This document shows, one piece after another, positions 7,346 through 37,563 of a stretch of DNA of 64,000 nucleotides. The notes under the pieces are model-generated. The model was not told where the DNA came from and searched no databases. It saw only the letters and a list, made by a program, of their open reading frames with translations. Position numbers and translations under genes: made by a program. Numbering within the stretch: position 1 is the stretch's first letter; the number at the start of each line of letters is the position of its first letter. The DNA lies in the IMG/VR virus record IMGVR_UViG_3300032269_000703, positions 1-64,000 of that record, one strand, 5' to 3'. This DNA comes from a virus (Duplodnaviria; Caudoviricetes).

Positions 7346-8233
7346 ATGACTATTAACGCTAGACCTACCTCGTATTTCAGCGTGCCCAGTCCTACCCTGG
7401 ATCCTAAACTATTTCAGGGTAGGACTTTGCATTCTGGCGTTAGATCAGAAATTACTGCTATTTTAGATAAGTATCTAAATACTAAGTACAACCATCCTGA
7501 AATCTGGTCACATGCATGGTTAGCAGGGTCAGGTGTTTCATTCCAATGGCAAGCCAATAGGCAGCCAGGTGATTTGGATTGTTTAGTAGGCGTAGACTTC
7601 CCACAGTTTAGACGTGCCAACCCATCATACCAAGGTCTGTCAGATTCAGAGATCAGTTCTGAAATCAATGAAGGATTTAAGTCAGAACTAGACCTACAGA
7701 CCAACAACTGGAATGGGTACGAGCTAACATTTTATGTTAACCCATCAGCTACAGATATTAAAACTATTCGTCCTTATGCAGCGTATGACCTAAAGTATGA
7801 CGAGTGGACAGTTACACCAGACCCACAAATGCAGCCGCCTCATAATCTGGAATGGGAGAAGGTAGTTGCCGAAGATTCAAATAAAGCCACCCAAATTCAT
7901 ACACGCGTTACAGCTGCAATTAACGAAATCCAGATGTCAACTAATCCAGCAGTAAAAAGAAATGCTGAGCTAAAGGCAGTTAGTGCAGGACAGCAAGGAT
8001 TAGCACTATTTAATGAGATCCACTCTAATCGTAGCCAAGCGTTTAGCCCAAGTGGTAAGGGGTATGCAGATTTCAATAATTACCGCTGGCAAGCAGGTAA
8101 ACGCGAAGGCACAGTACAAAAACTAAAAGGTATCAGCAAATACCTATCAGGACTATCATCAACAAGTTATGGTGTAGAGCTGCCAGATGCAGCCACCCTA
8201 ATTCGTAGATCCGCAGTATATAGGAGTCAATAA
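7346..8233 (+). CDS. Pol-beta superfamily nucleotidyltransferase-like protein
   Basis: LAGSGVS...GDLDCLVGVD (hG[GS]x9-13DhDh) with a later acidic residue in YELTFY. Confidence 0.65.
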   Translation: MTINARPTSYFSVPSPTLDPKLFQGRTLHSGVRSEITAILDKYLNTKYNHPEIWSHAWLAGSGVSFQWQANRQPGDLDCLVGVDFPQFRRANPSYQGLSDSEISSEINEGFKSELDLQTNNWNGYELTFYVNPSATDIKTIRPYAAYDLKYDEWTVTPDPQMQPPHNLEWEKVVAEDSNKATQIHTRVTAAINEIQMSTNPAVKRNAELKAVSAGQQGLALFNEIHSNRSQAFSPSGKGYADFNNYRWQAGKREGTVQKLKGISKYLSGLSSTSYGVELPDAATLIRRSAVYRSQ

Positions 8234-8664
8234 TGTCTGATGAAAACATTGGAAAACAATTTAAAGGAATTGCAGGAAACTTACTGCTTTCTGATGCGTC
8301 AGATAGCCTAGAACAAATGAAAAATATTGTAAGACCGTACTCTGACAAAGTATTTGCAGACAATATGATGTCAGACAAAGATCAACTTCGTCATCCAGCT
8401 ATTTATGCCCATAATGAGTTGTACTTTGCTGGACTGTCATTAGCATCAGCAACTAATCATCACAATTACAATGATTGGGTAGATGCAGTTCCTGAACTAA
8501 TGAAATCTAGTGCAAGAGTGATCAACGCAGCCACAGGTCTAATAGGAGATGCAGGCAAACTACCATTAGATAGCGATCATCAAGCAGAGTTTAAAAACCA
8601 TTTTGATAATTTCCACTCAAAATTAAATGATTACGTTAACTTATATGGAGATTTAGAAAGATAG
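8233..8664 (+). CDS. Helical His-rich hypothetical protein with NIGKQF leader
   Basis: N-terminus MSDENIGKQF. Confidence 0.55.
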   Translation: MSDENIGKQFKGIAGNLLLSDASDSLEQMKNIVRPYSDKVFADNMMSDKDQLRHPAIYAHNELYFAGLSLASATNHHNYNDWVDAVPELMKSSARVINAATGLIGDAGKLPLDSDHQAEFKNHFDNFHSKLNDYVNLYGDLER

Positions 8665-8763
8665 CCGTGTCATTAAAAGATACATGCCACAAATGTAGTC
8701 ATGAATTACTAGCAGGAATGTGCACAGAAGATTATTGTAAGTGTGATTGTTTAGGAGACGATT

Positions 8764-9267
8764 ATGAATAATAAACCAGAAGAACAACCAGAAGAAAACC
8801 CTAATATAGGCAAGCAGTTTGAGGAAATCATGGGTCAAAATATTTCTCCTAAAGAGGAACAAGACATGAAAATAAGAGCCCACGTAGATAATATATGGGA
8901 AATTCTAGGTGGTACAAATGATCCAGAAGAACAGCATGATCGGGACTACAAGCTACGTCGTCAAAGAATGGTAAACTTTCCCGACAATATGGTAAAAGAA
9001 GATGAAGATGGGCTACCACAAGTCGTTTACCACACCAAAGATAAATTAGGAAGAGAATGGAAGCATACCTGGAACGGATTTGCTTACATTGATCACCACC
9101 ATCCAAAGTATGGTCCAATTGAAGTAAGTAATTTGCATGACTATTCATTAAATTGGGGCGAGCAACCATACGAAAAAGGTCTATTTACTCCTCATGAGTT
9201 TTTACAGCACGTTAATTCGTTTACTGAAACAGCCCATGAAAATTATAAGGATGAAGATCTAAGATAA
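8764..9267 (+). CDS. Hypothetical protein with NIGKQF leader
   Basis: N-terminal ENPNIGKQF; AGGAG RBS. Confidence 0.55.
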   Translation: MNNKPEEQPEENPNIGKQFEEIMGQNISPKEEQDMKIRAHVDNIWEILGGTNDPEEQHDRDYKLRRQRMVNFPDNMVKEDEDGLPQVVYHTKDKLGREWKHTWNGFAYIDHHHPKYGPIEVSNLHDYSLNWGEQPYEKGLFTPHEFLQHVNSFTETAHENYKDEDLR

Positions 9268-9270
9268 CCA

Positions 9271-9756
9271 ATGAGAATATTAGTAGAAATAGATGGTGTA
9301 CTAAAAGATAGGAAAGACGGTGTTATTGCCACCGGATTTTTAATGTATGGACCATTAACAGCATATAATCAAGTTGTTTTAATGACAGAAATGACGCAAG
9401 CTGAAGCTGAGCGTTGGCTGAATGTAAATAAGATTGTAGACTATGATCTGCTAATTGACAAGTCAGTTCATCTAGAAACAGAAAATTTACAAGAACGTCA
9501 GATACAAGTAGCCCGTTCTCGTGGTAATATAGACTTATTCATAACTAGTAACCCTAAGTTATGGGTGTACGCATTTGATCAAGGTATTCCTAGCGTAATG
9601 TTTGGAGTACCTCAGTATTTACGTGCTGATTTTAGACCTGATGCACCAAAAAAGATTAGATCCTGGGATCAAATACAAGAAGCAGTAGAAAAACAGAACA
9701 TTTTAAAGACAAAAGACGCAAGATTACAACGGACTGAAGGACTAAACTTTGAGTAA
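9271..9756 (+). CDS. HAD-like fold protein, probably catalytically atypical
   Basis: MRILVEIDGVL resembles HAD motif I (DxDGxL) with the first Asp replaced by Glu. Confidence 0.5.
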   Translation: MRILVEIDGVLKDRKDGVIATGFLMYGPLTAYNQVVLMTEMTQAEAERWLNVNKIVDYDLLIDKSVHLETENLQERQIQVARSRGNIDLFITSNPKLWVYAFDQGIPSVMFGVPQYLRADFRPDAPKKIRSWDQIQEAVEKQNILKTKDARLQRTEGLNFE

Positions 9757-10096
9757 ATTACCTGTCACAATTAAAGTGGGTACTCAAGACTGGACTATTG
9801 TAGAGCACACGTCTAAAGAAGACGGTATGTTGTACGAAGATAACTATGGGTACACCCTAGAGCGCCGTAATATGATTGTCATAGATAAAGATGCGTCAGA
9901 TAGTCGTAAAAAGCAAGTCCTAATACACGAGATCTTGCACGCCATCAGGTTTACTTTTTTTACAGGTAATAAAATGGCACCAAAGCTAAGTTTTGAAGAC
10001 ACAGAACACTATTTCATTGGTATGTACGAAGAGACATTACTGATGGTTTTACAAGACAATCCACCACTCGTAGAATACTTATTGGATAAAAAATGA
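9749..10096 (+). CDS. HExxH zinc metallopeptidase-like protein
   Basis: YGYT...IVID...VLIHEILHAI...EHY. Confidence 0.65.
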   Translation: MSKLPVTIKVGTQDWTIVEHTSKEDGMLYEDNYGYTLERRNMIVIDKDASDSRKKQVLIHEILHAIRFTFFTGNKMAPKLSFEDTEHYFIGMYEETLLMVLQDNPPLVEYLLDKK

Positions 10097-11592
10097 TCAT
10101 ATTTGGTGGTGTAGAAATACCCTCAAATCGTACCCTTCTAGAACGTTCTGGTGTTACAAACGTAATGCTGAATTATTGGGGGCTACGCAAGCGTGGGCTA
10201 CCTAAAAACAAGACCTATTTAATAGGCGAGCATTTCCTACCTGAAACAAAAGTATGGGTAGATTCTGGAGCTGTCCAAGCAGATAAAGCCAATCTTTCAC
10301 GTCAAGAACTAGAGCAATACGCAGCTGATTATGAAGAGTTTATTGCTAACAACTATGATCGTATTGAAGGATTTACAGAATTTGACAGCCAAGTTCTGGG
10401 ATTGCCTACAATCATTAAGAATAGAGCCGTTTACCAAGGCGATCCTAAACTATGGGTAGTATGGCACGAAACCTATAAAACCTTTGTTTTAGAAGAATGG
10501 GCAAAAGAGCATTCTAACATAGCCATTCCTGGTACCGAAATCGAGGCTGTAACGTCGCTAGCCGCCATTACAAGAAGATTACAGCAAATGTATCAGGTTT
10601 CATTCCACGCCCTTGCTACGGTCAAACCAGACAATTTACGGCAGATACCATTTGTCACAGCTAGCACACTATCCTGGTTAACTCCAATGAGAAGAGGCGA
10701 GACAATCGTTTGGGATGGTAGTAAACTAGTTAGATATCCTAAAAATATGAAGAGCCAAGCCAGAATACGATACAAAAACGTCGTAGAAAAGGCAGGTTTA
10801 GATTTTAAAAAGTTTGTAGAAGATGACACATTAGAAGCCACCAAAGTCGCAATTTGGTCGTATTTACAGTTAGAGAAAACAATGGACAAAGAAAAACCCG
10901 ATCTAAAAGTTATTAAAGGTGGACAACAAGACCCGCTACTATCTGATAACAGTGATGATACTCTATACACCGGTTTGATGCAAATGGGTGGGTATGGTTC
11001 TAATAACAGTGATGAAATAGATCTCAAAAAAGAGCGTACTGAAGTGGTACAAAGAGACCCTTCTGAGGTAGTTTCTATGCCTGTTTTTGGGTATGAGTAC
11101 AAGACTGTAATAGAGACTGAAAACGGCATAGATGTACTAAAAGATGTGCCAGTTGTTAAGTCAAATAGTAGCAGTTTAAGACAGTGCAACACCTGTTTTG
11201 TTGCTGCAAATTGCCCTGCATTTAAGCCCGATAACACCTGTGCATTTAACCTGCCAGTAGAGGTAAAAACCAAGGATCAACTGAAATCATTACTTACCGC
11301 AGTTATTGAAATGCAGGGTCAGAGAGTAGCATTTATGCGGTTTGCAGAGGAATTAAACGGTGGTTATGCAGATCCAAACGTGTCACAAGAAGTAGACCGT
11401 TTAATGAAGTTGGTTAAGTCTATGAAGGAACTTGACGAGAATAAAGAGTTTGTCAGGATTACTGCTGAACGCTCCTCTAGTGGGGGTGTATTGTCAGCTA
11501 TTTTTGGTGACCGCGCACAGGCACTTAGAGAGATGTCAAACCCTCTAAATCCAGATCAAACTAACAAGATTATACGGGATTCAATAGAATAA
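10093..11592 (+). CDS. TGT/DpdA-like TIM-barrel domain fused to a C-terminal Cys-cluster/helical domain
   Basis: VWVDSGA motif, VVWH, FHAL and TLSWL elements as in phage TGT-like proteins; C-terminal CNTCFVAANCPAFKPDNTC. Confidence 0.5.
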   Translation: MIIFGGVEIPSNRTLLERSGVTNVMLNYWGLRKRGLPKNKTYLIGEHFLPETKVWVDSGAVQADKANLSRQELEQYAADYEEFIANNYDRIEGFTEFDSQVLGLPTIIKNRAVYQGDPKLWVVWHETYKTFVLEEWAKEHSNIAIPGTEIEAVTSLAAITRRLQQMYQVSFHALATVKPDNLRQIPFVTASTLSWLTPMRRGETIVWDGSKLVRYPKNMKSQARIRYKNVVEKAGLDFKKFVEDDTLEATKVAIWSYLQLEKTMDKEKPDLKVIKGGQQDPLLSDNSDDTLYTGLMQMGGYGSNNSDEIDLKKERTEVVQRDPSEVVSMPVFGYEYKTVIETENGIDVLKDVPVVKSNSSSLRQCNTCFVAANCPAFKPDNTCAFNLPVEVKTKDQLKSLLTAVIEMQGQRVAFMRFAEELNGGYADPNVSQEVDRLMKLVKSMKELDENKEFVRITAERSSSGGVLSAIFGDRAQALREMSNPLNPDQTNKIIRDSIE

Positions 11593-11609
11593 CTGTTATC
11601 TGATAACAG
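11593..11609. promoter_or_regulatory. Perfect inverted repeat CTGTTATC-T-GATAACAG, operator-like, upstream of RNR
   Basis: 8-bp arms with a 1-nt centre in the intergenic region. Confidence 0.35.
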
Positions 11610-11765
11610 GGGTTTATATACCCTGAAACAAGGTCCGCACTATTTTTAAGTTAATACGTGCAAAAAAATAGTTTTATGCGCGATTGGACAAAGCGTAGTT
11701 TATAGGGTAAAATCGTATTCTGCCTAAATCGCAAATACCCCCTTTTACATTAATGGAGAGTCTAT

Positions 11766-13781
11766 ATGACTAATTTTTCTTTTAAATTATCCGAAGAGTT
11801 TGTAGCAAGCTATAACAGCAAGAAAGCACCTTTTGGCTACGCAGATGTTGCAGGAAACTCAGTAGGTGAAATTACCTTCCTACGTACCTATTCACGCAAG
11901 AAGCCAGATGGTACCAAGGAAACCTGGGTTGAAGTATGTGAACGTGTAATTAACGGTATGTACTCACTACAGAAAGATCACGCTAAGCAAAACCGCCTAC
12001 CTTGGTCAGATGCCAAGGCTGCTGCTAGTGCCAAGGAAGCGTTTGATCGTCTATTCAACCTAAAGTGGACACCACCAGGTCGCGGACTATGGGTTATGGG
12101 AACTTCACTAGTAAATGAACAGCGTAACTCTGCTGCGCTACAGAACTGTGCCTTTGTATCTACTAACGAAATGACTAAGGCTAACCCTGCCAAGCCGTTT
12201 GCATTCCTTATGGAAGCGTCAATGCTGGGTGTGGGTGTTGGTTTTGATGACAAGGGCGCTGATAAAGGATTTGAAATCTATGAGCCTAAATCAGATCTAG
12301 AATATATGATTCCAGATACTCGTGAAGGCTGGGCAGACAGCGCAGTTGCACTTATCAACTCTTATTTAAAGCCAGACCAGCCAAATTGGGTATTTGAATA
12401 CAAAGAAATTCGTCCATATGGAGCTGCGATTGCTACTTTTGGAGGAACAGCCTCTGGTCCAGAGCCACTAATTAAACTACACGATCAGATTAGGGTATTA
12501 TTTGCAGGTCGTGCTGGGCAGATGTTGACTCGTAAAGATATTGCTGATATCGGTAATATGATCGGTGTTTGTGTAGTATCAGGAAACGTTCGTCGTTCTG
12601 CAGAGCTACTAATTGGTCAGATTGACGATCAGGAGTTCCTAAACCTAAAGAACCCTGAACTAAACCCTGAGCGTATGGCTAACTGGGGTTGGATGTCTAA
12701 CAACTCAGTAGAAGTATCTGTGGGTACAGACTTCACTCCAATCGTAGATGGTATTGCACGTAATGGTGAGCCAGGTGTTATCTGGATGGACACATCACGT
12801 AAGTATGGTCGTTTGGCAGACAAGCCTAACAACAAGGACTGGCGTATTTCTGGGTACAACCCTTGTGCAGAACAAAGCCTAGAAAGTTTTGAGATGTGTA
12901 CTTTGGTTGAGACTTACCTAAACCGCCACGATAGCCTAGAAGATTATAAGCGCACTCTTAAGTTTGCTTATCTCTATGCTAAGACCGTGACCCTACTTCC
13001 TACTCACTGGGAAGAAACTAACGCTATTATGCAACGTAATCGCCGTATTGGTACTTCAATGTCTGGTGTAGCTAACTTTGCAGATAACAAGGGTCTACCT
13101 GTACTACGTCAATGGATGGATGAAGGCTACCAGGTTGTAACTGAGTATGACAAGACTTACTCTGAGTGGCTGGGTATTCGTGAATCTATCAAAATGACTA
13201 CAATCAAGCCATCAGGTACTGTGTCTCTTCTTGCAGGCGAGTCTGCTGGTGTGCACTGGGACGTTGCTGGTCGCTACCAAATGCGCTTGATTACATTTGC
13301 AGATAACGATCCAATGTTGCCACTATTCAAGATGGCTAACTATCGTGTAGAAGAAAGCGTATACACTAAGGGGTCATCAGTAGTGTACTTCCCTATCAAA
13401 TCTAACTCTGTTCGTTCTGCTAAAGACGTGTCTATTTATGAAAAGATCGCTCTAGCTGCAACAGCACAGCGTTACTGGTCAGACAACTCTGTATCAGTCA
13501 CAGTTTCTTTTGATGCTGAAAAAGAATCAGAAGATGTCGGTCGTGTATTGCATATGTACGATGGACAATTAAAGACCGTATCTTTCTTGCCTAGTGGCAA
13601 TAAGGTCTACGATCAAATGCCTTACCAGGAAATCACAGAAGACGAGTATAACGGGTACGCTATGCAACTCTTCCCGATTGACTTTAAGGGTGTCTATGCT
13701 GGTATGGCATCAGATGCTATTGGTGAGGCTTACTGCACCACAGACGCTTGCGAGATCAAACTCGTCAAGGACAACCAATAA
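11766..13781 (+). CDS. nrdJ: Class II (adenosylcobalamin-dependent, RTPR-type) ribonucleotide reductase
   Basis: RTYSR, PPGRGLW, LQNCAF, GNVRRSAE, NPCAEQ, TTIKPSGTVS and a C-terminal YCTTDAC redox pair. Confidence 0.95.
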   Translation: MTNFSFKLSEEFVASYNSKKAPFGYADVAGNSVGEITFLRTYSRKKPDGTKETWVEVCERVINGMYSLQKDHAKQNRLPWSDAKAAASAKEAFDRLFNLKWTPPGRGLWVMGTSLVNEQRNSAALQNCAFVSTNEMTKANPAKPFAFLMEASMLGVGVGFDDKGADKGFEIYEPKSDLEYMIPDTREGWADSAVALINSYLKPDQPNWVFEYKEIRPYGAAIATFGGTASGPEPLIKLHDQIRVLFAGRAGQMLTRKDIADIGNMIGVCVVSGNVRRSAELLIGQIDDQEFLNLKNPELNPERMANWGWMSNNSVEVSVGTDFTPIVDGIARNGEPGVIWMDTSRKYGRLADKPNNKDWRISGYNPCAEQSLESFEMCTLVETYLNRHDSLEDYKRTLKFAYLYAKTVTLLPTHWEETNAIMQRNRRIGTSMSGVANFADNKGLPVLRQWMDEGYQVVTEYDKTYSEWLGIRESIKMTTIKPSGTVSLLAGESAGVHWDVAGRYQMRLITFADNDPMLPLFKMANYRVEESVYTKGSSVVYFPIKSNSVRSAKDVSIYEKIALAATAQRYWSDNSVSVTVSFDAEKESEDVGRVLHMYDGQLKTVSFLPSGNKVYDQMPYQEITEDEYNGYAMQLFPIDFKGVYAGMASDAIGEAYCTTDACEIKLVKDNQ

Positions 13782-19166: not shown

Positions 19167-21113
19167 TTACTTTGTTAGGTGTTTGGCGATAGCCATTTTG
19201 ACGATAGATTTTGCTAACCCGATCAAGTGGTCGGGGTGCTGAATGTGTGCCGAGATCATACTTTCGTGGCTTGTTTTTGGATCAAGATCATTACCGATAA
19301 GCGCTAGTGCTGTGATAACTCCTGAACTGCCTAATGTCGAAATGATTTGATCTGCGTTATCACTCTCTATTCCCCATTCGCCGTCTGTAATGGTGAATAG
19401 GATTTTTACATTCCTGCGTGAGTTGGCGAATACGCTCTGCGAATAGAGCAACGCTTCTACTGGATCAGTTCCCCCGTCTGCGCCAGCATCTCGAAGCTCA
19501 CTCTTTACCCTGTCTTGTGGTTCGTAAAGCATTTCGGCATAAGTGTTGTAAGTGATAACGGAACAATTAGCGCCGATAGCCTGTAAGCCCTGCTTGATCG
19601 CAAACATAGACTTATAGGCGCTTACTGCCTTAGATCCAGACATAGACCCGGAGTTGTCTAACAAGATTACGGCTTCGAGATCCGTTGCTTCATCTTGTCC
19701 GTCATACCATTCGTCAAATGTGGTTTCTATGTCCTTTTCGGTTAGGTATCTGCTGGCGTTGATTTTTCCACTATCTAGGCGTGTTCGCCAGTTAGGTTCG
19801 AGATCAGTTCTAATGCGTTCTAGTTCAATTCCAAACTGCTTACCTGCCGCAAGTGTTCGGGTATCTACTTGCCTAGTGGTGTATCTAGCTCGTTTTGGTC
19901 TATCAACCTTTATGTCCTGTAAAGATAGATCATTCTTGAAGTCCCGAATGTCCTTAGTGATTTCGGTTTTTACTTTTTCGAGATCTTTCTGCCATTGGTC
20001 AAGAATGGTGTCTTTCAACATTGGATCTAAATACTTTGGATCGTGTTTTGAAGCGCCATTTGTATCATCTTTATTTGGATCTGGATCTCCCTTGTCCTGA
20101 TCCTTTTTGTTGCTCTTTTGTGAGTTTGGGGTTTGTCCCTGTTTCTGTCCCTGCCCTTGTTCCTGCTCTGGTGTAGGTGTAGGCGAAGTTGGCATAGGGA
20201 ACTTACAACCTGTTTGGTTTTGTGGTTCTGGTTCTGGCTGATCGCCTGGCTTCGGTGGTGCGCTCTGGTTAGTTCCCTTAGTGTTTGTTTCATTACGCTT
20301 GGTTGCGCCGTTTTTAGCGTGTTCCTGATCCTTTATTGGTAGTGGTCGGCTGGCACTAGGTTCTAGTTCATCACTAGGTCTAGTTTCGTGTCCGTTAGGT
20401 GTTGGGATTTTGCCGCAACCTGTTCCAGTTTTCATTTCGCCTAATAGCTCTTGAAGTCTGCGAAGTATGTCTAATGCTCGAAGTATGGTTTGATCGTCAT
20501 TCCATACCATTACTCGGTATTCGTCTAGTAGTGCCTGGATCTCGTCTATGTGTTGTGGTTGAGCATAAACATCTTGAAGCGCCTGTCTAACTGCTACTGG
20601 TAGATACTTGCGACCTGCGACCACCGGAAATTGTGTTGATAGATCGAGATCAGGTGTGAGCAAGTGTCTAAACACGCTGGCATTGAGCCACGCTGTAATG
20701 TTTGTGCCGAACCTGCCGATCAGTAGTGTTTCAATTCGGCTATCTTCTGCTATCGAATACGCTTCCGTAAGGTTTTCTTTGTTGATAATTCTCTTGAATG
20801 ATGATCCATTCCTAGCGCTAAATAGAATGTGGCAGATTTCGTGAAGTGTAAGTCCTTTGAGCGCCATAGCTTTTTTAGGATCAGTAATGTCTGTTAGGTG
20901 ATTAGCTGAATACACGATAGTTCTGCTTGTTGCGACTACTGGGGCAACGCCGAATGGCACGACTAGGCAATTTACGCTTCTAAGCGTGATTACGCTGGCG
21001 TATTTGCTGAATACCTGACTAACTCTCTCTATGCGATCTAACGCTTTCTGCTGTTCTGTTCTGGCGTGGATAGTCCATTTCACGCTGTCTTGATCATCTG
21101 GCAATAACATCAT
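19167..21113 (-). CDS. CobT-like protein: HExxH domain, low-complexity linker, C-terminal vWA domain
   Basis: LHEICH and AEDSRIE; MIDAS motif LLDNSGSM...GGT...ITDGE. Confidence 0.85.
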   Translation of the reverse strand: MMLLPDDQDSVKWTIHARTEQQKALDRIERVSQVFSKYASVITLRSVNCLVVPFGVAPVVATSRTIVYSANHLTDITDPKKAMALKGLTLHEICHILFSARNGSSFKRIINKENLTEAYSIAEDSRIETLLIGRFGTNITAWLNASVFRHLLTPDLDLSTQFPVVAGRKYLPVAVRQALQDVYAQPQHIDEIQALLDEYRVMVWNDDQTILRALDILRRLQELLGEMKTGTGCGKIPTPNGHETRPSDELEPSASRPLPIKDQEHAKNGATKRNETNTKGTNQSAPPKPGDQPEPEPQNQTGCKFPMPTSPTPTPEQEQGQGQKQGQTPNSQKSNKKDQDKGDPDPNKDDTNGASKHDPKYLDPMLKDTILDQWQKDLEKVKTEITKDIRDFKNDLSLQDIKVDRPKRARYTTRQVDTRTLAAGKQFGIELERIRTDLEPNWRTRLDSGKINASRYLTEKDIETTFDEWYDGQDEATDLEAVILLDNSGSMSGSKAVSAYKSMFAIKQGLQAIGANCSVITYNTYAEMLYEPQDRVKSELRDAGADGGTDPVEALLYSQSVFANSRRNVKILFTITDGEWGIESDNADQIISTLGSSGVITALALIGNDLDPKTSHESMISAHIQHPDHLIGLAKSIVKMAIAKHLTK

Positions 21114-21171
21114 TTTTGTTTTCCTGTTCTATGACTTGTTTTGGTTGTAAATAAATTGGATCAGGGCAAGT

Positions 21172-21197
21172 AAAGGGGAATGTTGCCATTCCCCTTT
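21172..21197 (-). terminator. Hairpin / putative terminator between AAA and vWA genes
   Basis: AAAGGGGAATG-TTGC-CATTCCCCTTT. Confidence 0.55.
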
Positions 21198-21228
21198 TCC
21201 TGCTCTCTCTGCTCGGTGTTGGGCAGAA

Positions 21229-24554: not shown

Positions 24555-24769
24555 TTCTTACCGAGAGCAACCAACATAACATTCGGCGAAACTCGCAAAA
24601 TACGGCATAGATCAGCAAGCGTGTCTGCTGGTATCTCTCGTTGCTGGTGGAAATACCTAGACAAACTCGACTTCTGGAAGCCTGTGTATAGGCAGAACTG
24701 ATTTAGGGACTTGAAGCCCTGTTTCTGGTAGCGATCTACGAACCAAGCGTAAGTTTGATCAGGTTTCAT
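24545..24769 (-). CDS. XRE-family HTH protein
   Basis: SLNQFCLYTGFQKSSLSRYF...EIPADTLADLCRILRVSP; probable start MKPDQ. Confidence 0.7.
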   Translation of the reverse strand: MKPDQTYAWFVDRYQKQGFKSLNQFCLYTGFQKSSLSRYFHQQREIPADTLADLCRILRVSPNVMLVALGKKWK

Positions 24770-25116
24770 CTCTGGCAACCACACTCTCGGCTCTTGAAGG
24801 TATCGAGAAGCGCCCATTCGTTCAGGCGAAGCGTGAATAGGAACTGGCGATCAGTATCTAGGTTTCGCACCTGGAAGCAACTCCAAATGAGCTGTTCGCC
24901 TTGCTGGAATGACCAGACAACACTCACGATCTCTAATGTTGCGCCGTTCTTCATTACGCTATCGCCAACAACTAGGTTGTGCGCTTGTCTTGCTATGTAT
25001 CGGGAATGAGCGTGATCCCCGACATTTGGATCTAATAGTTTCACTTGAAACTCCTTGATTAGTTGGAATACCTGCCAAGTGGCAAGTGGATAAATACTAA
25101 CTCCAAATAGGCACAA
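24766..25116 (-). CDS. Hypothetical protein (start uncertain)
   Basis: ORF; AAGGAG before VKLLDP suggests an internal GTG start. Confidence 0.4.
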   Translation of the reverse strand: MCLFGVSIYPLATWQVFQLIKEFQVKLLDPNVGDHAHSRYIARQAHNLVVGDSVMKNGATLEIVSVVWSFQQGEQLIWSCFQVRNLDTDRQFLFTLRLNEWALLDTFKSRECGCQR

Positions 25117-25203
25117 AACACCACAATTCGCAGCAACACTCCAAGCTCACACCAGCAACAGAATAAAAATAAAACGCCAAGTATGAAGTCCCCTAGACAT
25201 AGA

Positions 25204-25733
25204 GATCCAGATAGAGAGAGAGAGATAACACTCAATAGATCCAGATCCAGATCTAAACCAAACTCCGGGCATTAGATCACACCAACACCGGAGATCCTGG
25301 CACTAAACCTGATCCAACTGAGAGCTGATCTAAATAGCCTGGAACACCGGAGATCGGCAGCAATAGTTCGAGATCCACTCGCCCAGGCACTAGCTATGGA
25401 TCTAATACCTGATAACGGCAACCCTGATCTAACGCTGACCTGATCACACTAGCCGTCAAGCCCTAGTGATCATTCGGCAGTAGCCTAAACGGCTCGTAGA
25501 AGCCCTTATTTGCCTAACCCTAACTATCTATCCATTCCCCTATTCAAGCCCTACACGACCCCGTAGAAGCCGTATTTGACCATAGAGCAGATAAACGGCG
25601 TGTCTAACCCCTAAATAGCCGTAGATCCGTATAATCCACGATCTCGGCGTGTCGCAATTTGACTATTTAGATCCATAGAGCTAAACTACGCCATCACCAG
25701 ATCTAAGCGTTATCAAATAGTTATGTAGAGATC
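25204..25733. repeat. Noncoding block with a dense GATC cluster
   Basis: 19 GATC counted in about 530 bp (14 within 25204-25471); AACACCGGAGATC occurs twice. Confidence 0.8.
25645..25687 (+). promoter_or_regulatory. Sigma70/SigA-type promoter 1 with upstream CGGCGTGTCG box
   Basis: TTGACT (25659) - 17 bp - TAAACT (25682). Confidence 0.6.
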
Positions 25734-25773
25734 GGCGTGTCGATTTGACTAATGCCACCGGTTATGGTAAGGT
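25733..25773 (+). promoter_or_regulatory. Sigma70/SigA-type promoter 2 with upstream CGGCGTGTCG box
   Basis: TTGACT (25745) - 17 bp - TAAGGT (25768), with a TGn extended -10. Confidence 0.6.
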
Positions 25774-25845
25774 GCGAGCAGGTCTGCCCAGGAGAAATCC
25801 ACGCTTGGTACCCATAAAGTTAGGCAGTAGCCTATAATGAGCTTT

Positions 25846-26349
25846 ATGAGCAAAAATGCAAATTTTAAACATGGGTCGCAAACGCTTGTTACACCTACAG
25901 AGCTAAAAAAGCTCGCTAAGTCGTTGCTAGATCCTGAGCACGAAGAGTTTGGTGAGCCAGGCAGTAAGTATCAGGACAGTAACCACCTATACTGGCAGAA
26001 TAGCACTAGGTGGGGTGCTGCCGGTGAGTGTGAGAACACCTCTAGATGGATACACCCGTATCTACCACAGGGCTCTCAGATAGTCAATATGGACAACTCT
26101 AAAGAAGATTCTTGGGTTGATGAGGACGGACAGAGAAGAACTGCCTCAATAGGCAACCACTACGTAACTGTTGTTCCTACTACAGAAGGTCCACACGTAG
26201 TAGACTTTACTCATAGACAGTTTCATAGCACCGCAGAATTTCCTATAGTACAACATATTAACGATTTTATGAAGAGAGCGTCTATGAAAGGCTACATTTT
26301 AGACCAAGAGCAGCTTTCTCCTACACTTAAAGAGAACTTAGGCGAATAA
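25846..26349 (+). CDS. Papain/transglutaminase-like Cys-His-Asp enzyme
   Basis: AAGECENTS...GNHYVTVV...VVDFTHRQF; leader MSKNANF. Confidence 0.6.
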   Translation: MSKNANFKHGSQTLVTPTELKKLAKSLLDPEHEEFGEPGSKYQDSNHLYWQNSTRWGAAGECENTSRWIHPYLPQGSQIVNMDNSKEDSWVDEDGQRRTASIGNHYVTVVPTTEGPHVVDFTHRQFHSTAEFPIVQHINDFMKRASMKGYILDQEQLSPTLKENLGE

Positions 26350-26759
26350 TGGATATACCTAGACAGTTTCAACACCTATTTTTTCATGTAAGCCCTAGAA
26401 GTAACCGCGAAAGCATAGAATCTAAGGGTCTACAGGCTAATGACGCCTATAATGACCAAACAGATACTTCTAATGGTATTGGCGTGTTTGTTTCTCATGA
26501 ACCTGATACATCTTTTGGCGATGACATTTATGGCATTGAAAACCCTCCTACAGGTAGAAAAGCCACAATTTCATTCATGGGAAGAACTCGTGAGTATGAT
26601 GAAGGCAAACATGACCTAGAAGATGCTCTTGATACTGAGGGTGTGTTTATACCCCATGATGTTCCTACCAGTGATTTTAAGCGAATAGGTCACGTATTCA
26701 TGAATAATGGACACCCAGAGATCCACTGGCATAAAGAAGAAGAGTGTCCTAATGGGTAG
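26349..26759 (+). CDS. ADP-ribosyltransferase-like protein (His-type)
   Basis: FFHVSPRSNRESIESKGL...GVFVS...FGDDIY; leader MDIPRQF. Confidence 0.6.
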   Translation: MDIPRQFQHLFFHVSPRSNRESIESKGLQANDAYNDQTDTSNGIGVFVSHEPDTSFGDDIYGIENPPTGRKATISFMGRTREYDEGKHDLEDALDTEGVFIPHDVPTSDFKRIGHVFMNNGHPEIHWHKEEECPNG

Positions 26760-27159
26760 AACTAATGGAGAGTTTCAAAATGGAACTGGAAAAGTCATGG
26801 TTGGATACCATGTGTCGTCTAATAGTAATAGAGATAGTATAGAAAAAACCGGATTGGTATCTAGCTGGGTAGGCAATGATCGTAGGGCTAAAGCTACTAA
26901 AGGTGTATTTTTTAGTACAGATAAAGAGTACTTGGATGATTTTGGCGGGGTTAAAAGTGACATTTGGAAAGTAACAGTTCCTATTGCCGGAATAGAAGAA
27001 GATTCTCATAAAGAAAATGCCTTTTACTCTAAAGATGATATACCACGTAGAAATGTTGAACGGGTAGGTCATTTTACAAAAGCTCCTGAATCAGACAATA
27101 AATTTGCTCCTTATTTAGAAATACATTGGCATAAAGAGGAGGACTGCCCTAATGAGTAA
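26752..27159 (+). CDS. ADP-ribosyltransferase-like protein, paralog of 26349
   Basis: GYHVSSNSNRDSIEKTGL...GVFFS...DIWKV; shared C-terminus GH...EIHWHKEE.CPN; leader MGRTNGEF. Confidence 0.6.
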   Translation: MGRTNGEFQNGTGKVMVGYHVSSNSNRDSIEKTGLVSSWVGNDRRAKATKGVFFSTDKEYLDDFGGVKSDIWKVTVPIAGIEEDSHKENAFYSKDDIPRRNVERVGHFTKAPESDNKFAPYLEIHWHKEEDCPNE

Positions 27160-27616
27160 TGAAGAAGACGAGTTTGACTATAGTTCAGCTATTACAAACC
27201 CTGAATACTATAAGCATGAAGATGATGGACCACAGGTACCAATGACAGGTCGTGTGGCTAGATTGCATAACATAACCTATGTACCTATGTCTGACGATGA
27301 GATTATAAATCATGAAAATGAAAATTTTAGTGAGCTAGACCCTGAAACCTGGGAATATCCTAATGAAAAAGAAAAGTTATTAGATAGAAATACGCCTTTG
27401 TTTAGCAAACAATCACATTTTGGCACACAGGGCATTAGGCACTATATAGACAATCCGGATGTACTTGCTGATCGTTACACTGATTATCCTACACCAGTAG
27501 TGTACACAGGTAAAGATGGTAAGATGTGGATACACAATGGGCATCACAGGATTATATCTTCTCGCCTACGTGGAGAACAATCTATCAAAGTAATTGACCG
27601 TGGAGTAAGAGCCTAA
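27152..27616 (+). CDS. ParB/Sulfiredoxin-like domain protein
   Basis: PVVYTGKDGKMWIHNGHHRIISSRLRGEQSIKV. Confidence 0.7.
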   Translation: MSNEEDEFDYSSAITNPEYYKHEDDGPQVPMTGRVARLHNITYVPMSDDEIINHENENFSELDPETWEYPNEKEKLLDRNTPLFSKQSHFGTQGIRHYIDNPDVLADRYTDYPTPVVYTGKDGKMWIHNGHHRIISSRLRGEQSIKVIDRGVRA

Positions 27617-28335
27617 TGGAGCTAGGTAGACAATTTAAACAACCACACCAGATGTCGCCTGATGAGTTTGCGGCACATCCTGCTGCTATCTTTCACGGCA
27701 CTTATTTGCCTGATGAAGATGTTATGGACGTGACTAATAGGCGTGGGTACCCTTCTTCTGGAGATAATTACTATGAGAACGGCAAGCCTATAGATGTAGT
27801 GCCAAAAATGCATTTAGGTACTTTTCAAGCTGCATTAGATGCTGTAATTCAAAATAGGAATAGTTATAGCGATAAAGCGACTATTCACACATATTGGCAA
27901 ACTCCTAAAGTGTCAGGTGCTACAGGTAATCTGCGTCTATCTAACTTTTTTAATGTAGATAAAGGTCCTTCTGAAGAAGACGTCAATAACCCAGAGAATG
28001 TGGCGCACTTTGTTCCAGGTGCACATTACTACGAGAATCAAAATGAAGGCGAAATAGGTGATCCTTCTTTTGCAACTGACACTCCTCACAAGTATTTGAC
28101 ATCACAAGCAGATTATGTTAAAGCAGCCTTAGATCGTGGTGTACCTGAATCTGAGATACACCCAAGAACATTAAAGCTATATAAAGCGGGTACTCTAGGA
28201 AAAATGACTATGCCAGCAAGAGTAGCTGACTACATGACTAAATATCACAATAAGCTAGGACCTTACACTAATGCAGGTCCTACATGGGATTACCTAAACT
28301 CTGAAGAAGAAGCGCCTAAAAGATCTGAAGAATAG
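27616..28335 (+). CDS. ADP-ribosyltransferase-like protein (polyvalent-protein type)
   Basis: IFHGT...MHLGTFQAA...YENQNEG; leader MELGRQF. Confidence 0.55.
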   Translation: MELGRQFKQPHQMSPDEFAAHPAAIFHGTYLPDEDVMDVTNRRGYPSSGDNYYENGKPIDVVPKMHLGTFQAALDAVIQNRNSYSDKATIHTYWQTPKVSGATGNLRLSNFFNVDKGPSEEDVNNPENVAHFVPGAHYYENQNEGEIGDPSFATDTPHKYLTSQADYVKAALDRGVPESEIHPRTLKLYKAGTLGKMTMPARVADYMTKYHNKLGPYTNAGPTWDYLNSEEEAPKRSEE

Positions 28336-28388
28336 ACATAAAACGCCAACGTAGGTAAGTATACTAGTACTTAGACGTAAGGATGTAC

Positions 28389-28895
28389 ATGACAGAATTA
28401 GGCGGGCAATTTAACTGCCCAGATTGTGGAAAGCCACAATATTCAGAAAATGGTTTTGAACCACACGACCACAGTGATACTTGCCCTACTTGTGGCGACT
28501 CTAAGGCAGATGGTCATTGGCACACCGGAATGAAGATTACTCTAGATCCTAGCGACCTTGATTTTTACAAAAAAGTAAATGAGATGGGTAAACTCCAGGG
28601 TCAACTAGATAATATCGATGCCACTAGAGAAGTAGACCTAACTAACAAAGCAGACCTTATAGACCACTTAGGATCTGACAATGGGCACGGTTTTTCTCCT
28701 TACGCAGACTGGTGCCACACATATGATGGCGAAGGTCTACGTACTACTTCTAAATGTAACGAAGAGATGGATCATGAGATGACCCTTACTCAGCTACAGA
28801 GTGTTCACCAGGAGCTTCATGAAAAGTATGGTGAAGATTATCCACACGAAAACACTGGTGACTGGCGTTCCGGCACTCACAGGCACTTGGAGTAA
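28389..28895 (+). CDS. Zinc-ribbon / His-rich protein
   Basis: Leader MTELGGQF then CPDC...H..CPTC...H. Confidence 0.55.
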   Translation: MTELGGQFNCPDCGKPQYSENGFEPHDHSDTCPTCGDSKADGHWHTGMKITLDPSDLDFYKKVNEMGKLQGQLDNIDATREVDLTNKADLIDHLGSDNGHGFSPYADWCHTYDGEGLRTTSKCNEEMDHEMTLTQLQSVHQELHEKYGEDYPHENTGDWRSGTHRHLE

Positions 28896-28898
28896 CCA

Positions 28899-29261
28899 AT
28901 GGGAAGAAGTAAAGCAAGCTTTAACGCTGCTGTTCCTTTGCATGATTTGACACAAGGATTTGGTCCAGATGTGTACGATAATCTAGATAAGCACGTTGTA
29001 AGTTCTGTTCTTAAAGATATTATTATTAGATCTAGAAATAAGCCGTCTAAACTTTCAAGGCTGCATATACTCGTCCCAACTGGTAGCCGCGGGGTGAACC
29101 AAGGAGACATAGGATTTTTAGATCGTGAAGATGCTGCACGAGAAGGAAGAGCTACTATGCCAGATGGTTTTAGACTAACAACTAGGAACCTACCTGCTAA
29201 ATATCTGTTTACGACTGGCGATCTTAGCAGATGGACTTGGAACCCAGGAAAGACTGAATAA
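28899..29261 (+). CDS. Degenerate ART-like domain protein
   Basis: LVP...GVNQGDI...LPAKYLFTTGDLSRW resembles an ART-fold module of polyvalent proteins; leader MGRSKASF. Confidence 0.4.
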   Translation: MGRSKASFNAAVPLHDLTQGFGPDVYDNLDKHVVSSVLKDIIIRSRNKPSKLSRLHILVPTGSRGVNQGDIGFLDREDAAREGRATMPDGFRLTTRNLPAKYLFTTGDLSRWTWNPGKTE

Positions 29262-29716
29262 TGACTGAACAAGGATCCCAATTTACATGTCCACAATGTG
29301 GTACGCCGCAGTTTACTGCAGAGTTTGGTTTTGAACGCCATTATCATGAACCTAATGATGTAAAAGACCCATGTGTTTTTTGTGGTGAAAGTACTGCACC
29401 TGCTAAAGGAGCTAATTTAGGTAATTTAGACCTAGGTGAACTTTTTAAAACAAATTCCTTAATAAATTCTAAGTTTGTAAATAGACTTCCGGGAACTTGG
29501 CAAGATCCAAATGACCCAAAGAAAACAATAGAAGGTTATGCGTGTGCTGACTGTATGAGTTCTGATTGTAAAACATGTGGTAAGCCAGTTCGTTTAGATG
29601 AAGAAGTTGTAGATAAAAATGGAGAGTGGCACCACCATGGATGTTTAAACCCAAAAGACGCAGATGAATATTATCAAGACTGTGAATGCGATGATTGTGA
29701 AAAGTGGCGTAAATGA
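29261..29716 (+). CDS. Multi-zinc-finger protein, N-terminus paralogous to 28389
   Basis: Leader MTEQGSQF then CPQC, CVFC, CADC, CKTC...HHGC. Confidence 0.55.
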   Translation: MTEQGSQFTCPQCGTPQFTAEFGFERHYHEPNDVKDPCVFCGESTAPAKGANLGNLDLGELFKTNSLINSKFVNRLPGTWQDPNDPKKTIEGYACADCMSSDCKTCGKPVRLDEEVVDKNGEWHHHGCLNPKDADEYYQDCECDDCEKWRK

Positions 29717-32604: not shown

Positions 32605-32947
32605 TCCAGAAGAATTTGATTTTAGTCATATTAATGAGACTAACGCTCCTAGAACAATGGGAGAGCTACACGAATTAACTGAAGGTAGACCTCTTAGTAG
32701 AGCACAATGGAATAACATTATGGAGTTAGGTCTTAAACGCACCGCTAATGAAGAAGCAAATCCACCTAAGCCTGTTCCTGAAGGAATGGCTAATCCTAAT
32801 CTAGGTGATCTAGAGTCTGAAGTTGGTGCTCAAAAAGTTGGCTGCAATAACTGTGGCGAACTAATGTCTCGTGATCAGCATAAAGAAGAAGGCGGATTAT
32901 GCTTTGATTGCTGGAAAACTCAACAGGAAGAGGATAGACATGAGTAA
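32597..32947 (+). CDS. Hypothetical protein with C-terminal zinc ribbon
   Basis: Start MTNPEEFDFS; CNNC...CFDC. Confidence 0.5.
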   Translation: MTNPEEFDFSHINETNAPRTMGELHELTEGRPLSRAQWNNIMELGLKRTANEEANPPKPVPEGMANPNLGDLESEVGAQKVGCNNCGELMSRDQHKEEGGLCFDCWKTQQEEDRHE

Positions 32948-33245
32948 ATCACCTGCATGGCAAAGAGCAGAAGGAAAGAACCCTAAAGGCGGTCTTAATG
33001 CCAAGGGTAGAGCTTCTGCTAAAAAAGAGGGGCATAACCTCAAAGCACCTGTAAAAAAGGGCGACAATCCTCGTAGAGCCTCTTTCTTGGCTAGAATGGC
33101 TGGCAACCCAGGTCCAGAGCGTAAACCCAATGGTGAGCCTACTAGACTGCTTTTAAGCCTAGAAGCATGGGGTGCCTCATCTAAAGCTGACGCTAGACAA
33201 AAAGCTGCTGCTATTCGTAAGCGTAATGAAGGAAAGAAGAAGTAA
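32940..33245 (+). CDS. Conserved basic phage protein (DUF6321-like)
   Basis: MSKSPAWQRAEGKNPKGGLNAKGRAS...RRASFLARM. Confidence 0.65.
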   Translation: MSKSPAWQRAEGKNPKGGLNAKGRASAKKEGHNLKAPVKKGDNPRRASFLARMAGNPGPERKPNGEPTRLLLSLEAWGASSKADARQKAAAIRKRNEGKKK

Positions 33246-33406
33246 TGGCTACTAAAAAAGTTTGGGAAAAACCAGATCCTACTAAAAAAGACAAGCCTCT
33301 AAGCAAAAAGCAAAAATCATCGGCTAAAGCTCGTGCCAAAGCTGCTGGTCGTCCATACCCTAACCTAGTAGATAACATGGCGGCTTCTAGAAAGAAAAAG
33401 AAGTAA
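33245..33406 (+). CDS. Small basic protein (53 aa)
   Basis: MATKKVWEKP...AKARAKAAGRPYPNLVDNM; coupled at both ends. Confidence 0.6.
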   Translation: MATKKVWEKPDPTKKDKPLSKKQKSSAKARAKAAGRPYPNLVDNMAASRKKKK

Positions 33407-33762
33407 TGGATGAACAAAATCTAAACGATCAGCAGTTTGGTCCTTGGAAAATGACTCCTACCATGAAGGCTGTTCATGAGTATATGAAAACTAGACATGT
33501 TGGTGTAGAAAACAGAGGCGGTATGTGGGACATTGCAGCAGCTACTGTTACAAACCATAAAAAACAGTATTTAACTAATGCTAAACATGAAGCCCACTTT
33601 GAGGCATTAAATCGTCTAATTGATAATGGAATTGTAAAAAAGAACTCTGGAGACTACCATAATGGAGATGATATCGATACTGCGTGGATTCCTGTAGAAG
33701 GTGAAAAAACTGTAAAAGAACTGTACATGGAAGAACTTGAACATAAATTTGGCAGTCAGTAA
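33406..33762 (+). CDS. Possible winged-helix protein
   Basis: MWDIAAA...EALNRLIDNGIVKK; leader NLNDQQF. Confidence 0.45.
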   Translation: MDEQNLNDQQFGPWKMTPTMKAVHEYMKTRHVGVENRGGMWDIAAATVTNHKKQYLTNAKHEAHFEALNRLIDNGIVKKNSGDYHNGDDIDTAWIPVEGEKTVKELYMEELEHKFGSQ

Positions 33763-34645: not shown

Positions 34646-35167
34646 ATGCACATTAACGTACCAGATCCATGGGATAAACACAAAAACCCATATATTAACC
34701 CACATGATCCGTGGGATAAGAAAAAAGAGTGGGAAAAACCTGCTCCACCAAAGATTATTACAATTAATGATCTATTTCCTCGTTTAGACCGCCTTTCTAT
34801 TGGTTGGTCTCCACTTCTTGATCAACTCAAGGAGATTACTAACAACAAGCCAAGTTACCCTCCATATGACATTGTTCAGATGGATGAAGAGACAAACCTA
34901 CTCAACGTAGCTGTTGCTGGGTTTACTAAGAAGGAAGTTACTGTTACTGTAAAAGATTCAGCAATTACCATCGAAGGTAAGCAGAAAGAAAAGCAACGTG
35001 GCGAAGTTGTTTACCAGGGCATTGCTACACGGGACTTTAAGTTGTCGCTAGCAATTGCTGAATACTGGGAAGTTACTAATGCTCTAATGGAAAACGGTAT
35101 GTTGACTATTCAATTCAACAAGATCCTTCCTGAAGAGCTGAAGCCAAAGGTAATTGACATTAACTAG
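34646..35167 (+). CDS. Small heat-shock protein (Hsp20/IbpA family)
   Basis: SYPPYDIV...VAVAGF...YQGIATRDF...MENGMLTI...PEELKPKVIDI. Confidence 0.93.
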   Translation: MHINVPDPWDKHKNPYINPHDPWDKKKEWEKPAPPKIITINDLFPRLDRLSIGWSPLLDQLKEITNNKPSYPPYDIVQMDEETNLLNVAVAGFTKKEVTVTVKDSAITIEGKQKEKQRGEVVYQGIATRDFKLSLAIAEYWEVTNALMENGMLTIQFNKILPEELKPKVIDIN

Positions 35168-35435: not shown

Positions 35436-35448
35436 ATGGAAGGAAAAT

Positions 35449-36576: not shown

Positions 36577-36709
36577 TGTTTTTATGGTTAATACTGTCTG
36601 GAATAGGCATTACAAGTATTATTATTATAGGTTTGTTCTCTTTAATTATTTTTATTGAGGCACTTGCAAACCATTCTGATTTAGATTCGGATTTTTGGAA
36701 AGAGTAGCT

Positions 36710-36895
36710 ATGGGTTACATTAATGAGCTTCGTACTGGACTTGCTGGCGGTCGTGGCAATCTAAGCCTAAAAATCTCTACTCGCTATGATGGTCTTGGCA
36801 TTAACGCGCAAAAGTTTGGCGGAAAGCAGTTTACTGTAGGTGAAACAAACTACGCTAGCAGTAACAAAGGAATTGCTAAACCAGGCAGCTTTTAA
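36710..36895 (+). CDS. Small Gly-rich hypothetical protein
   Basis: Start MGYINELR; coupled to the next gene. Confidence 0.45.
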   Translation: MGYINELRTGLAGGRGNLSLKISTRYDGLGINAQKFGGKQFTVGETNYASSNKGIAKPGSF

Positions 36896-37029
36896 TGCTT
36901 AGCACACAGTTTTCTAGAGCTACCGGCATGTATGGCGGTCCTAGAGGTACTTACGGTACTTATCTTGTAGGTCAAAATGTAGATCTAGCAAGTTTTAAAA
37001 CCGATAGAGAAAGACAGTCAGGCGAATGA
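36895..37029 (+). CDS. Small protein with LSxQF leader (44 aa, not in ORF track)
   Basis: MLSTQFSRATGMYGGPRG...; TAATG-coupled. Confidence 0.5.
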   Translation: MLSTQFSRATGMYGGPRGTYGTYLVGQNVDLASFKTDRERQSGE

Positions 37030-37105
37030 TCCCAGAAGAAGAAGAATTTGATTTTGACTTTGTTATTTTTGATGAAGACGAAGAGGATGAGGATGAGGAT
37101 GAACA

Positions 37106-37360
37106 ATGAGTTCCTCTACTCTAGGTGTTCAATTTCAGGGCATTAGTGGTCTTTCTAATTACTGGACTAATATTCCATCTATGATTATGGGCATTAATGG
37201 CGGTGCTGCATTAAGCACTACAACTGGAGTTCCACTTGGCACACCTTCTGAAGAAATTTTTGCTAAAGTAGGTGGAGGAGTTAAGAAAGCTGATGATGTC
37301 AGTGATCAACTACCAGCATCTACATCAGGTATGTTACAGGGCGGCACAGCCGCTAGTTAG
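37106..37360 (+). CDS. Small protein with LGxQF leader
   Basis: MSSSTLGVQFQG. Confidence 0.5.
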   Translation: MSSSTLGVQFQGISGLSNYWTNIPSMIMGINGGAALSTTTGVPLGTPSEEIFAKVGGGVKKADDVSDQLPASTSGMLQGGTAAS

Positions 37361-37368
37361 GAAACACT

Positions 37369-37563
37369 ATGTTTGCAGCGTTACTTCCACTAGTTGCACG
37401 AGTTGGTGCAGGACTTGGTGCTAGAGCAGCAGTAGGTATGGGTGCCGCTGAAGGCGGTATTGGTGCTCGTGTTGGAGCAAACCTAGGTGAACGAGCCGCA
37501 GTATCTGCTGCTAGACACCTTAGCGGTCAATTTAACAATGAACGCAATAATCAATATAATTAA
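37369..37563 (+). CDS. Small Gly/Ala-rich protein with C-terminal LSGQF
   Basis: 64 aa, AGGA RBS. Confidence 0.5.
   Translation: MFAALLPLVARVGAGLGARAAVGMGAAEGGIGARVGANLGERAAVSAARHLSGQFNNERNNQYN

Follow-up and report, generated by a model that had tools for sequence, protein, structure and literature searches.

The window analysed here, the first 64 kb (64,000 nucleotides) of the 93,035-bp virus record IMGVR_UViG_3300032269_000703, carries a set of genes whose otherwise unrelated products open with one of two short peptides. We refer to these as the QF tag, with the consensus (T/E)-E-L-G-x-Q-F-(K/E), and the GRN tag, typified by MGRNNADF. The record has terminal repeats, is rated complete and represents a myovirus genome of ~42% GC with genes for terminase, portal, capsid and sheath. 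Its major capsid protein is 60-62% identical to the capsids of BRock-like Streptomyces phages. The host of the tagged phage family is probably actinobacterial, because the genome encodes a WhiB gene (92307-92537 of the full genome, beyond the 64-kb window), which by established usage marks an actinobacterial host (PMC6802176). No near match to the window DNA was found. Genes were called over the full genome with a custom codon-bias and ribosome-binding-site (RBS) gene caller, and all N-terminal statistics depend on the resulting 149 gene calls. The tagged genes and the weaker candidates, named below by their first coordinate, are the following.

8233..8664, plus strand: QF-tagged gene, 143 aa, starting MSDENIGKQFKGIAG, with a strong RBS upstream
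8764..9267, plus strand: 167 aa, with a QF motif at residues 14-19 (NIGKQFEEIMG)
25846..26349, plus strand: first gene of the Phe-7 run (MSKNANF), a possible weak tag
26349..26759, plus strand: QF-tagged (MDIPRQF), 136 aa, paralogue of 26752
26752..27159, plus strand: GRN-tagged (MGRTNGEF), body shared with 26349
27616..28335, plus strand: QF-tagged (MELGRQF), 239 aa, ADP-ribosyltransferase (ART) fold suggested by a structure model and fold matches
28389..28895, plus strand: QF-tagged (MTELGGQF), 168 aa, with a CxxC zinc ribbon directly after the tag
28899..29261, plus strand: GRN-class tag (MGRSKASF), 120 aa, weak match to a ParB C-terminal PHROG
29261..29716, plus strand: QF-tagged (MTEQGSQF) zinc-ribbon protein, 151 aa
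29713..30327, plus strand: MF variant (MTSLSPMF), 204 aa, alternative start possible at 29731
33406..33762, plus strand: weak QF candidate (MDEQNLNDQQF), 118 aa
33762..34172, plus strand: GRN-tagged (MGRNTAAFQGG), 136 aa
34172..34531, plus strand: GRN-tagged (MGRNNADFHG) GNAT acetyltransferase, 119 aa (PF00583, E 5e-8)
36895..37029, plus strand: QF-tagged (MLSTQF) Gly-rich peptide, 44 aa, conserved in relative L002
37106..37360, plus strand: QF-tagged (MSSSTLGVQFQGISG) protein, 84 aa, conserved in two relatives
37369..37563, plus strand: Gly/Ala-rich protein, 64 aa, with AARHLSGQFN(N/T)(E/N)RNN near its C-terminus; membership doubtful
41154..42101, plus strand: 315 aa, GRN-like motif SRNAAFSQGSGGG at residues 8-20, off the N-terminus; doubtful

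The QF tag is real and is under purifying selection as a peptide. Among the 149 proteins, QF occurs 11 times within residues 2-15 where 2.5 occurrences are expected from the rest of the proteins (Poisson P 5.6e-5), and with the initiator Met left aside it is the most enriched of the 400 dipeptides tested. Eight consecutive genes (25846-29716) carry Phe at residue 7 or 8, a run as long as which arose in 1 of 200,000 gene-order permutations (P about 5e-6, in a post hoc test) and which extends to nine genes if 29713 uses its first ATG. The same enrichment was seen in loci chosen only by MGRNNADF, with 28 N-terminal QF dipeptides against 7.1 expected (P 2.6e-9), whereas 1,204 proteins from control aquatic phage loci gave 24 against 21.4 and showed none. 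Enrichment at protein termini, which the initial annotation had set as the test of its proposal, was therefore found at the N-terminus, both in the genome and in independent loci. The codons of the motif vary between genes (GGA, GGC or GGT; AAA, AAG or AGA; CAA or CAG), and orthologues in two related contigs retain the peptide through synonymous changes; selection therefore acts on the peptide and not on the DNA. In the tag of 29261, for example, the peptide is identical in two relatives despite such changes, and NFKHGSQ of 25846 is retained in the L002 orthologue. The Phe mostly occupies residues 7-10, although 3-16 residues are allowed ahead of the motif. Gly is the strongest position ahead of Q-F in the sequence logo, the residue right after Phe is variable (K, E, Q, N or T), and Ile or Val is frequent three residues past it.

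All eleven peptides on which the initial annotation had based a shared leader lie where it placed them, and four of them need qualification. In 8764 the motif stands, at residues 14-19 rather than at the extreme N-terminus; the homologue of its body in relative L094 starts MNPEDSKQFDEIMG. The tag position of 29713 is as proposed, with MF in place of QF, and its positional counterparts in two relatives open with MTEFSPQF and MTEIGPQF. The NDQQF peptide of 33406 is present but fits the consensus poorly. In 37369 the C-terminal GQF exists and is conserved in two orthologues, but it lies 9 residues before the C-terminus, and C-terminal QF is not enriched genome-wide (1 seen, 2.5 expected). The conserved stretch in which it sits holds both GQF and RNN, as in the two tags.

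The proposal that one peptide heads otherwise unrelated proteins withstood an all-versus-all BLASTP of the genome's proteins, in which only 26349/26752 and 28389/29261 were detectable paralogues, and the peptide is conserved at the protein level. What the initial annotation missed is that QF is not the single tag: it had noted an MGR class separately, and QF interchanges with that class. MGR(N/S/T)xxxF heads 26752, 28899, 33762 and 34172, all neighbours of QF-tagged genes. The paralogues 26349 (MDIPRQF) and 26752 (MGRTNGEF) carry different tags on related bodies (E 2.5e-13); the 24 members of the 27616 family mostly start MELGRQF, MELNxxQF or MPELNxSQF, and one starts MTRNNADFQG; and over all data both tags are present within 5 body clusters. 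Because paralogues, the 27616 family and these five clusters mix the two, the QF and MGRNNADF tags can stand in for one another on a given body.

MGRNNADF is a near-invariant octapeptide placed directly at the start codon. When GRN-type motifs were sought in any frame of all DNA examined, 51 of 53 lay immediately behind an ATG or GTG. Across 48 GRN-type starts Arg is encoded by AGA, CGT, CGC and AGG and Gly by all four of its codons, and the DNA upstream of these starts is unrelated. These results bear on the proposal that the peptides have no common function and are due to chance, are remnants of a multigene family or mark a DNA or RNA element such as a recombination linker or translation signal. 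The weak members 33406, 37369 and 41154 and the two true paralogue pairs would fit such an origin, as would the tail-to-head gene overlaps, which show translational coupling. Against it, the enrichment holds in the genome, in the independent set and relative to control loci, and the tag is the best-conserved part of diverged families. A DNA- or RNA-level element is rejected by the use of both Arg codon families and the varying upstream sequences, and paralogy as the whole explanation by the count of only two pairs in the genome and 56 unrelated body clusters overall. This proposal is very improbable, and can be regarded as already largely ruled out.

The distribution of the tags is narrow. In two IMG/VR contigs that are syntenic with the window, they occur on orthologues and also on additional, non-orthologous genes, which start MPELNPDQF, MTEFSPQF, MTEIGPQF, MELNENQF, MGRNRADF, MGRNNEEF or MGANLDDF. 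A degenerate DNA pattern for MGRNNADF found 33 sites in 25 IMG/VR contigs of 42-55% GC, where ~1-2 chance matches are expected (scaled by a rough size estimate); in several of these contigs 2-5 adjacent genes open with the octapeptide and then diverge. In 596 Gb of cellular genomes the same pattern gave 13 matches, none at a gene start, and the species representatives of 185,579 bacteria and archaea contain no gene that opens with MGRNNADF. A host-derived signal is accordingly rejected for the GRN tag, the 13 cellular matches being chance ones. A general aquatic-phage trait is likewise rejected, in that 80 loci with a protein like the DUF6321-like product of window positions 32940-33245 were unenriched, two close relatives aside. 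Among sequence collections, a search of a 5.8-billion-protein set limited to residues 1-40 yielded orthologues of the GNAT and nothing else, a metagenome scan gave only 4 loci, BLAST of the 27616 and 26349 proteins against 50,697 phage records gave no matches, and a literature search for MGRNNADF found no paper.

All tagged contigs long enough to judge have a capsid protein 64-93% identical to that of the window and the same head module, and the tagged phages are one freshwater family with genomes of ~93 kb. Specificity of the tag to one phage family was upheld by the control loci and the cellular genomes. Within the family the number of tags differs, with about 15-20 in the genome studied here, about 8 in relative G001 and very few in G003. 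No MGRN-type start was found in Streptomyces phage LuckySocke (61.5% identity in the capsid protein).

After removal of the tag, 112 non-identical tagged proteins fell into 56 unrelated body clusters, a changing assortment of small and for the most part enzyme-like proteins. The body types include ART-fold proteins, Arr-type ADP-ribosyltransferase (PF12120), GNAT, the ParB N-terminal domain and a PNKP-type HAD phosphatase, and among the other bodies are zinc ribbons and peptides 44-70 residues long. Each effector domain is a gene of its own (48-240 aa), with no multi-domain polypeptides, and the GNAT of the 34172 type is the most widespread tagged body. The AlphaFold model of 27616 has a predicted local distance difference test score (pLDDT) of 92, and ART-fold proteins (diphtheria toxin, MbcT, ParT, RES and PARPs) make up nearly all of its best structural matches. 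The best Z of 6.5 is middling alone, but the match list is uniform and suggests that the body has an ADP-ribosyltransferase-like fold. The model also aligns with a domain of a cyanophage A4 pre-ejectosome protein (9k3a chain B, Z 4.5), a virion-internal ejection protein. In 26349 a possible diphtheria-toxin-like F-H-x-S...S-I-E-S-K-G-L motif was read by eye from the sequence. The initial annotation's placement of the tag on ART-like and zinc-ribbon bodies was borne out.

The tag itself appears to lie outside these folds. Residues 1-4 of the 27616 model and residues 1-7 of the GNAT model have a pLDDT below 50, and the Pfam domains of tagged proteins start at residue 13-17 or further in. At the same time, the first ten residues of the GNAT alignment are nearly invariant and form its best-conserved stretch, while overall identity is 30-44%. 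As modelled, the tag is flexible, modular and outside the fold of the body, and a segment that is conserved yet disordered looks like a short docking motif.

A disordered N-terminal peptide with a key hydrophobic residue is also typical of protease-adaptor signals, and many of the bodies, being ART-like, look potentially toxic. The tag could on these grounds be a shared degron by which host proteases clear host-takeover enzymes at a set time. However, the tag has no known resemblance to N-terminal ClpX motifs, eight near-invariant residues exceed what a degron usually needs, and mimicry of a host signal would be expected of a degron, whereas no cellular gene start with the tag was found. We regard a degron as distinctly improbable.

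The neighbourhood of the tagged genes offers a candidate partner and a candidate receptor. The relevant untagged genes are these.

34646..35167, plus strand: untagged Hsp20/alpha-crystallin protein, directly after the tagged array (PF00011, E 5e-15)
49343-51073, plus strand: portal, head module
51193-51954, plus strand: putative scaffold, on the basis of position and the LuckySocke annotation only
51991-53121, plus strand: major capsid protein, head module

Of the untagged genes beside tagged ones, Hsp20 recurs most often (12 of 26 sources); the N-terminal region of the window's Hsp20 is unusual in being rich in Pro, Trp, Asp and Lys. The adjacency may be mere synteny, all loci being from one phage family. 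It enters the proposal that the tag docks effectors on a partner other than the capsid, either a host hub (RNA polymerase, ribosome or chaperone) or a phage chaperone such as Hsp20, by which modifying enzymes would be brought to their targets or kept in a holding state. A flexible, conserved and modular tag suits this proposal, as do bodies that are protein- or nucleic-acid-modifying enzymes, the frequent Hsp20 neighbour and the location of some tagged genes in early-looking regions. Three points stand against it. The GRN tag occurs at no cellular gene start and so is no copy of a host protein's N-terminal motif; it does not appear to fit clamp-binding motifs, single-stranded DNA-binding protein tails or the I-x-I motifs of small heat-shock proteins; and the Hsp20 link is open to the synteny explanation just given. 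Docking on such a partner is possible, though doubtful.

No enzyme family was found consistently beside tagged genes, although loci from a single phage family give such linkage little power. In the complete genome, family searches for Prp (PF04327), S78, S77, ClpP and proteasome-family peptidases gave no match. LuckySocke, a BRock-like Streptomyces phage, is annotated with a portal-scaffold-capsid order and no protease between. The remark in the initial annotation that no prohead protease lies between portal, scaffold and major capsid protein is supported by both lines. In relatives, a proteasome-beta/HslV-like peptidase (PF00227) starting MTT(L/I)(I/V)AVQ is encoded in left-arm regions (L090:4352-4918 and L110:6058-6609); in L090 it occupies the stretch where the window has the QF-tagged 8233 and 8764, and no PF00227 proteasome-type gene was matched in the window's genome.

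These searches weigh on the idea that one modifying or processing enzyme recognises the tag on many substrates, with N-terminal acetylation by the tagged GNAT, ADP-ribosylation of the tag's Arg or removal by a peptidase as examples. It would parallel the systems for ribosomally synthesized and post-translationally modified peptides, in which one maturase acts on many precursors with a common leader. The strictly N-terminal GRN tag with Gly after Met, its eight nearly invariant residues, the wide spread of tagged GNATs and the peptidase in the left arm of some relatives all accord with an enzyme site. But no enzyme family is constant beside tagged genes, the window's genome lacks matches to the peptidase families searched, the 3-16 residues ahead of QF are ill suited to an enzyme that reads the N-terminus, and the bodies, as folded enzymes, differ from short core peptides. 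An enzyme site is unlikely.

The main tagged arrays precede the head genes and share their strand, an arrangement kept in G001, and the head module (49343..53121) is a candidate receptor of the tag. The putative scaffold had no PHROG match. The large terminase TerL (46907-48487; relatives L108, L109 and L112) has a conserved (Q/K)-F-E-E-I-(N/T)-P-(E/D)-F-Y within its first 16-20 residues. This start resembles the QF tag of 8764 (IGKQFEEIMG), and the LuckySocke terminase has no such stretch; the likeness could be coincidence or a common docking site. A tag-like Phe stretch in the 131-aa protein after TerL was dismissed as a false positive, the segment being conserved in LuckySocke behind a longer N-terminus.

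Several further features were noted to the left of the main arrays. Small left-arm proteins have a third N-terminal leader in common, M-(x)-P-(D/E)-D-R-(A/G/S)-N-D-P-x-R-(K/R). In the window it is found at 4938-5192 and 5402-5824 (MSNVPDRSNDPKRKVPF and MSVPDRGNHPNRKATF), where it ends in Phe at residue 16-17, and in relatives (L093, L104, L106 and L110) as MSAPDRANDPKRK, MPEDRANDPNRVF and MAKDRARD. Window positions 6920-7051 encode a member of a very basic peptide family of 38-57 aa (MAKGK...RNNGKASKKRPK; NDRPN in relatives) conserved in 7 sources; in L089, L108, L109 and L112 it lies directly upstream of, or one gene ahead of, the MGRN arrays. At 10093-13781 a queuine tRNA-ribosyltransferase-like gene (phrog_887) adjoins a ribonucleotide reductase gene. 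On the minus strand at 19167-22119 a MoxR/CobS-type AAA ATPase stands beside a 648-aa protein that matches only PHROGs of unknown function. Positions 24543-25845, between this minus-strand block and the rightward tagged array, comprise 1.3 kb without called genes.

Our best single guess, held at a probability of only about 0.3, is that the tag loads proteins into the head for co-injection. The tag would be a short linear docking motif recognised by one common partner, namely the assembling procapsid (scaffold, portal or inner capsid surface), and the tagged proteins would be packed into the head and delivered into the host with the DNA. It would act by binding only, with no protease trimming, much as encapsulin cargo-loading peptides do. 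At the same tentative level, a rapidly changing kit of ADP-ribosyltransferases, acetyltransferases, ParB-like proteins and RNA-repair enzymes would be loaded by two protease-independent, interchangeable tags. Head loading, if real, must act by binding alone because no head protease family was found. The initial annotation had suggested a binding motif rather than a cleavage site; the lack of a protease match and of a conserved cleavage motif after the tag agrees with this. Head loading is favoured by the body types, which are found in proteins of established or predicted injection (T4 Alt, polyvalent protein domains), by the form of the T4 capsid-targeting sequence (CTS), by the arrays upstream of head genes and by the structural match to 9k3a chain B.

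A number of observations weigh against head loading. Genes 8233 and 8764 have nucleotide-metabolism genes around them, as do the tagged genes in left-arm-type loci of relatives, and expression of such metabolic genes usually falls early or midway through infection. About 15-20 tagged proteins are many for one 93-kb head, and one tagged body is a PNKP-type phosphatase, in T4 a cytoplasmic early enzyme. Scans for promoters and terminators gave nothing above shuffled controls. Neither a protease nor a conserved cleavage motif after the tag is present, and because of this the T4 mechanism as such is inapplicable. The link to the head module may reflect only shared ancestry, all tagged phages being relatives, and G003 has the same head but very few tags. 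The odds that the five readings set out here leave over belong to readings beyond them.

If the tag is indeed a head address label, it would be the first outside T4-like and P1 phages, and a protease-free one, and it would link phage internal proteins to encapsulin cargo loading. It would also provide a rule for reading injected effectors from sequence in phages of abundant, hard-to-culture freshwater bacteria, and, if it can carry foreign proteins into a capsid, so short a tag (8 residues) would have practical value. Should the partner differ, a near-invariant disordered octapeptide on more than 50 unrelated families would still point to one recognition event on which the whole accessory gene set depends.

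Among known systems, the closest in form is the T4 CTS, MKTYQEFIAE, which heads internal proteins IPI-III and depends on Tyr4 and Phe7 for targeting. It heads highly diverse internal proteins, counter-defence proteins among them, and so resembles the tags in being ~10 N-terminal residues common to diverse, fast-evolving proteins. In sequence the two share only a Phe at residue 7-8, usually after a polar or acidic residue, in peptides too short for a homology test. The CTS binds the T4-type scaffolding core and is cut by the gp21 protease (Peptidase S77) at (L/I)-x-E, whereas the phage described here has a portal-scaffold-capsid module in which no protease was found, and no cleavage motif after the tag; it also has two interchangeable tags and far more tagged proteins. 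For want of the protease the tag system is not a member of the T4 CTS class, though it may work alike.

Encapsulin cargo-loading peptides are short terminal peptides on unrelated enzymes that bind inside an HK97-fold shell and remain uncleaved. The capsid protein here belongs to a tailed-phage capsid family, and the tag is disordered in monomer models. Encapsulin peptides differ in being mostly C-terminal with another consensus, and encapsulins are non-viral and eject no cargo. A third comparison is with the N-terminal extension (...LNLQFF/A, the slash marking the cut) that Prp cleaves from ribosomal protein L27 and from the capsid and scaffold proteins of staphylococcal phage 80-alpha. It too is an N-terminal leader with L-x-L-Q-F, but it needs F-F followed by Ala, and Prp itself, whereas the residue after Phe varies in the tags. 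Prp-type cleavage was rejected, both for the wrong context after Phe and for the absence of a Prp match in the genome, and L27 is not known to have an extension of the Prp type in actinobacteria.

In repertoire, the tagged bodies have the same domains as polyvalent proteins and toxins fused to MuF. For the ART, GNAT, ParB-like and RNA-repair phosphatase domains of polyvalent proteins, entry into the host along with the DNA has been predicted (Iyer et al. 2017, PMC5512222). Those domains are strung together in a giant polypeptide or fused to a head protein, whereas here they are separate small tagged genes. The tags MNWYK... and MNRYDIALGKKPPP of huge or T4-like phages likewise place one peptide on many unrelated proteins, with other sequences and in other lineages. 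New in the present case are the phage family, the two interchangeable tags, the lack of a protease and the more than 50 body families that the tags head.

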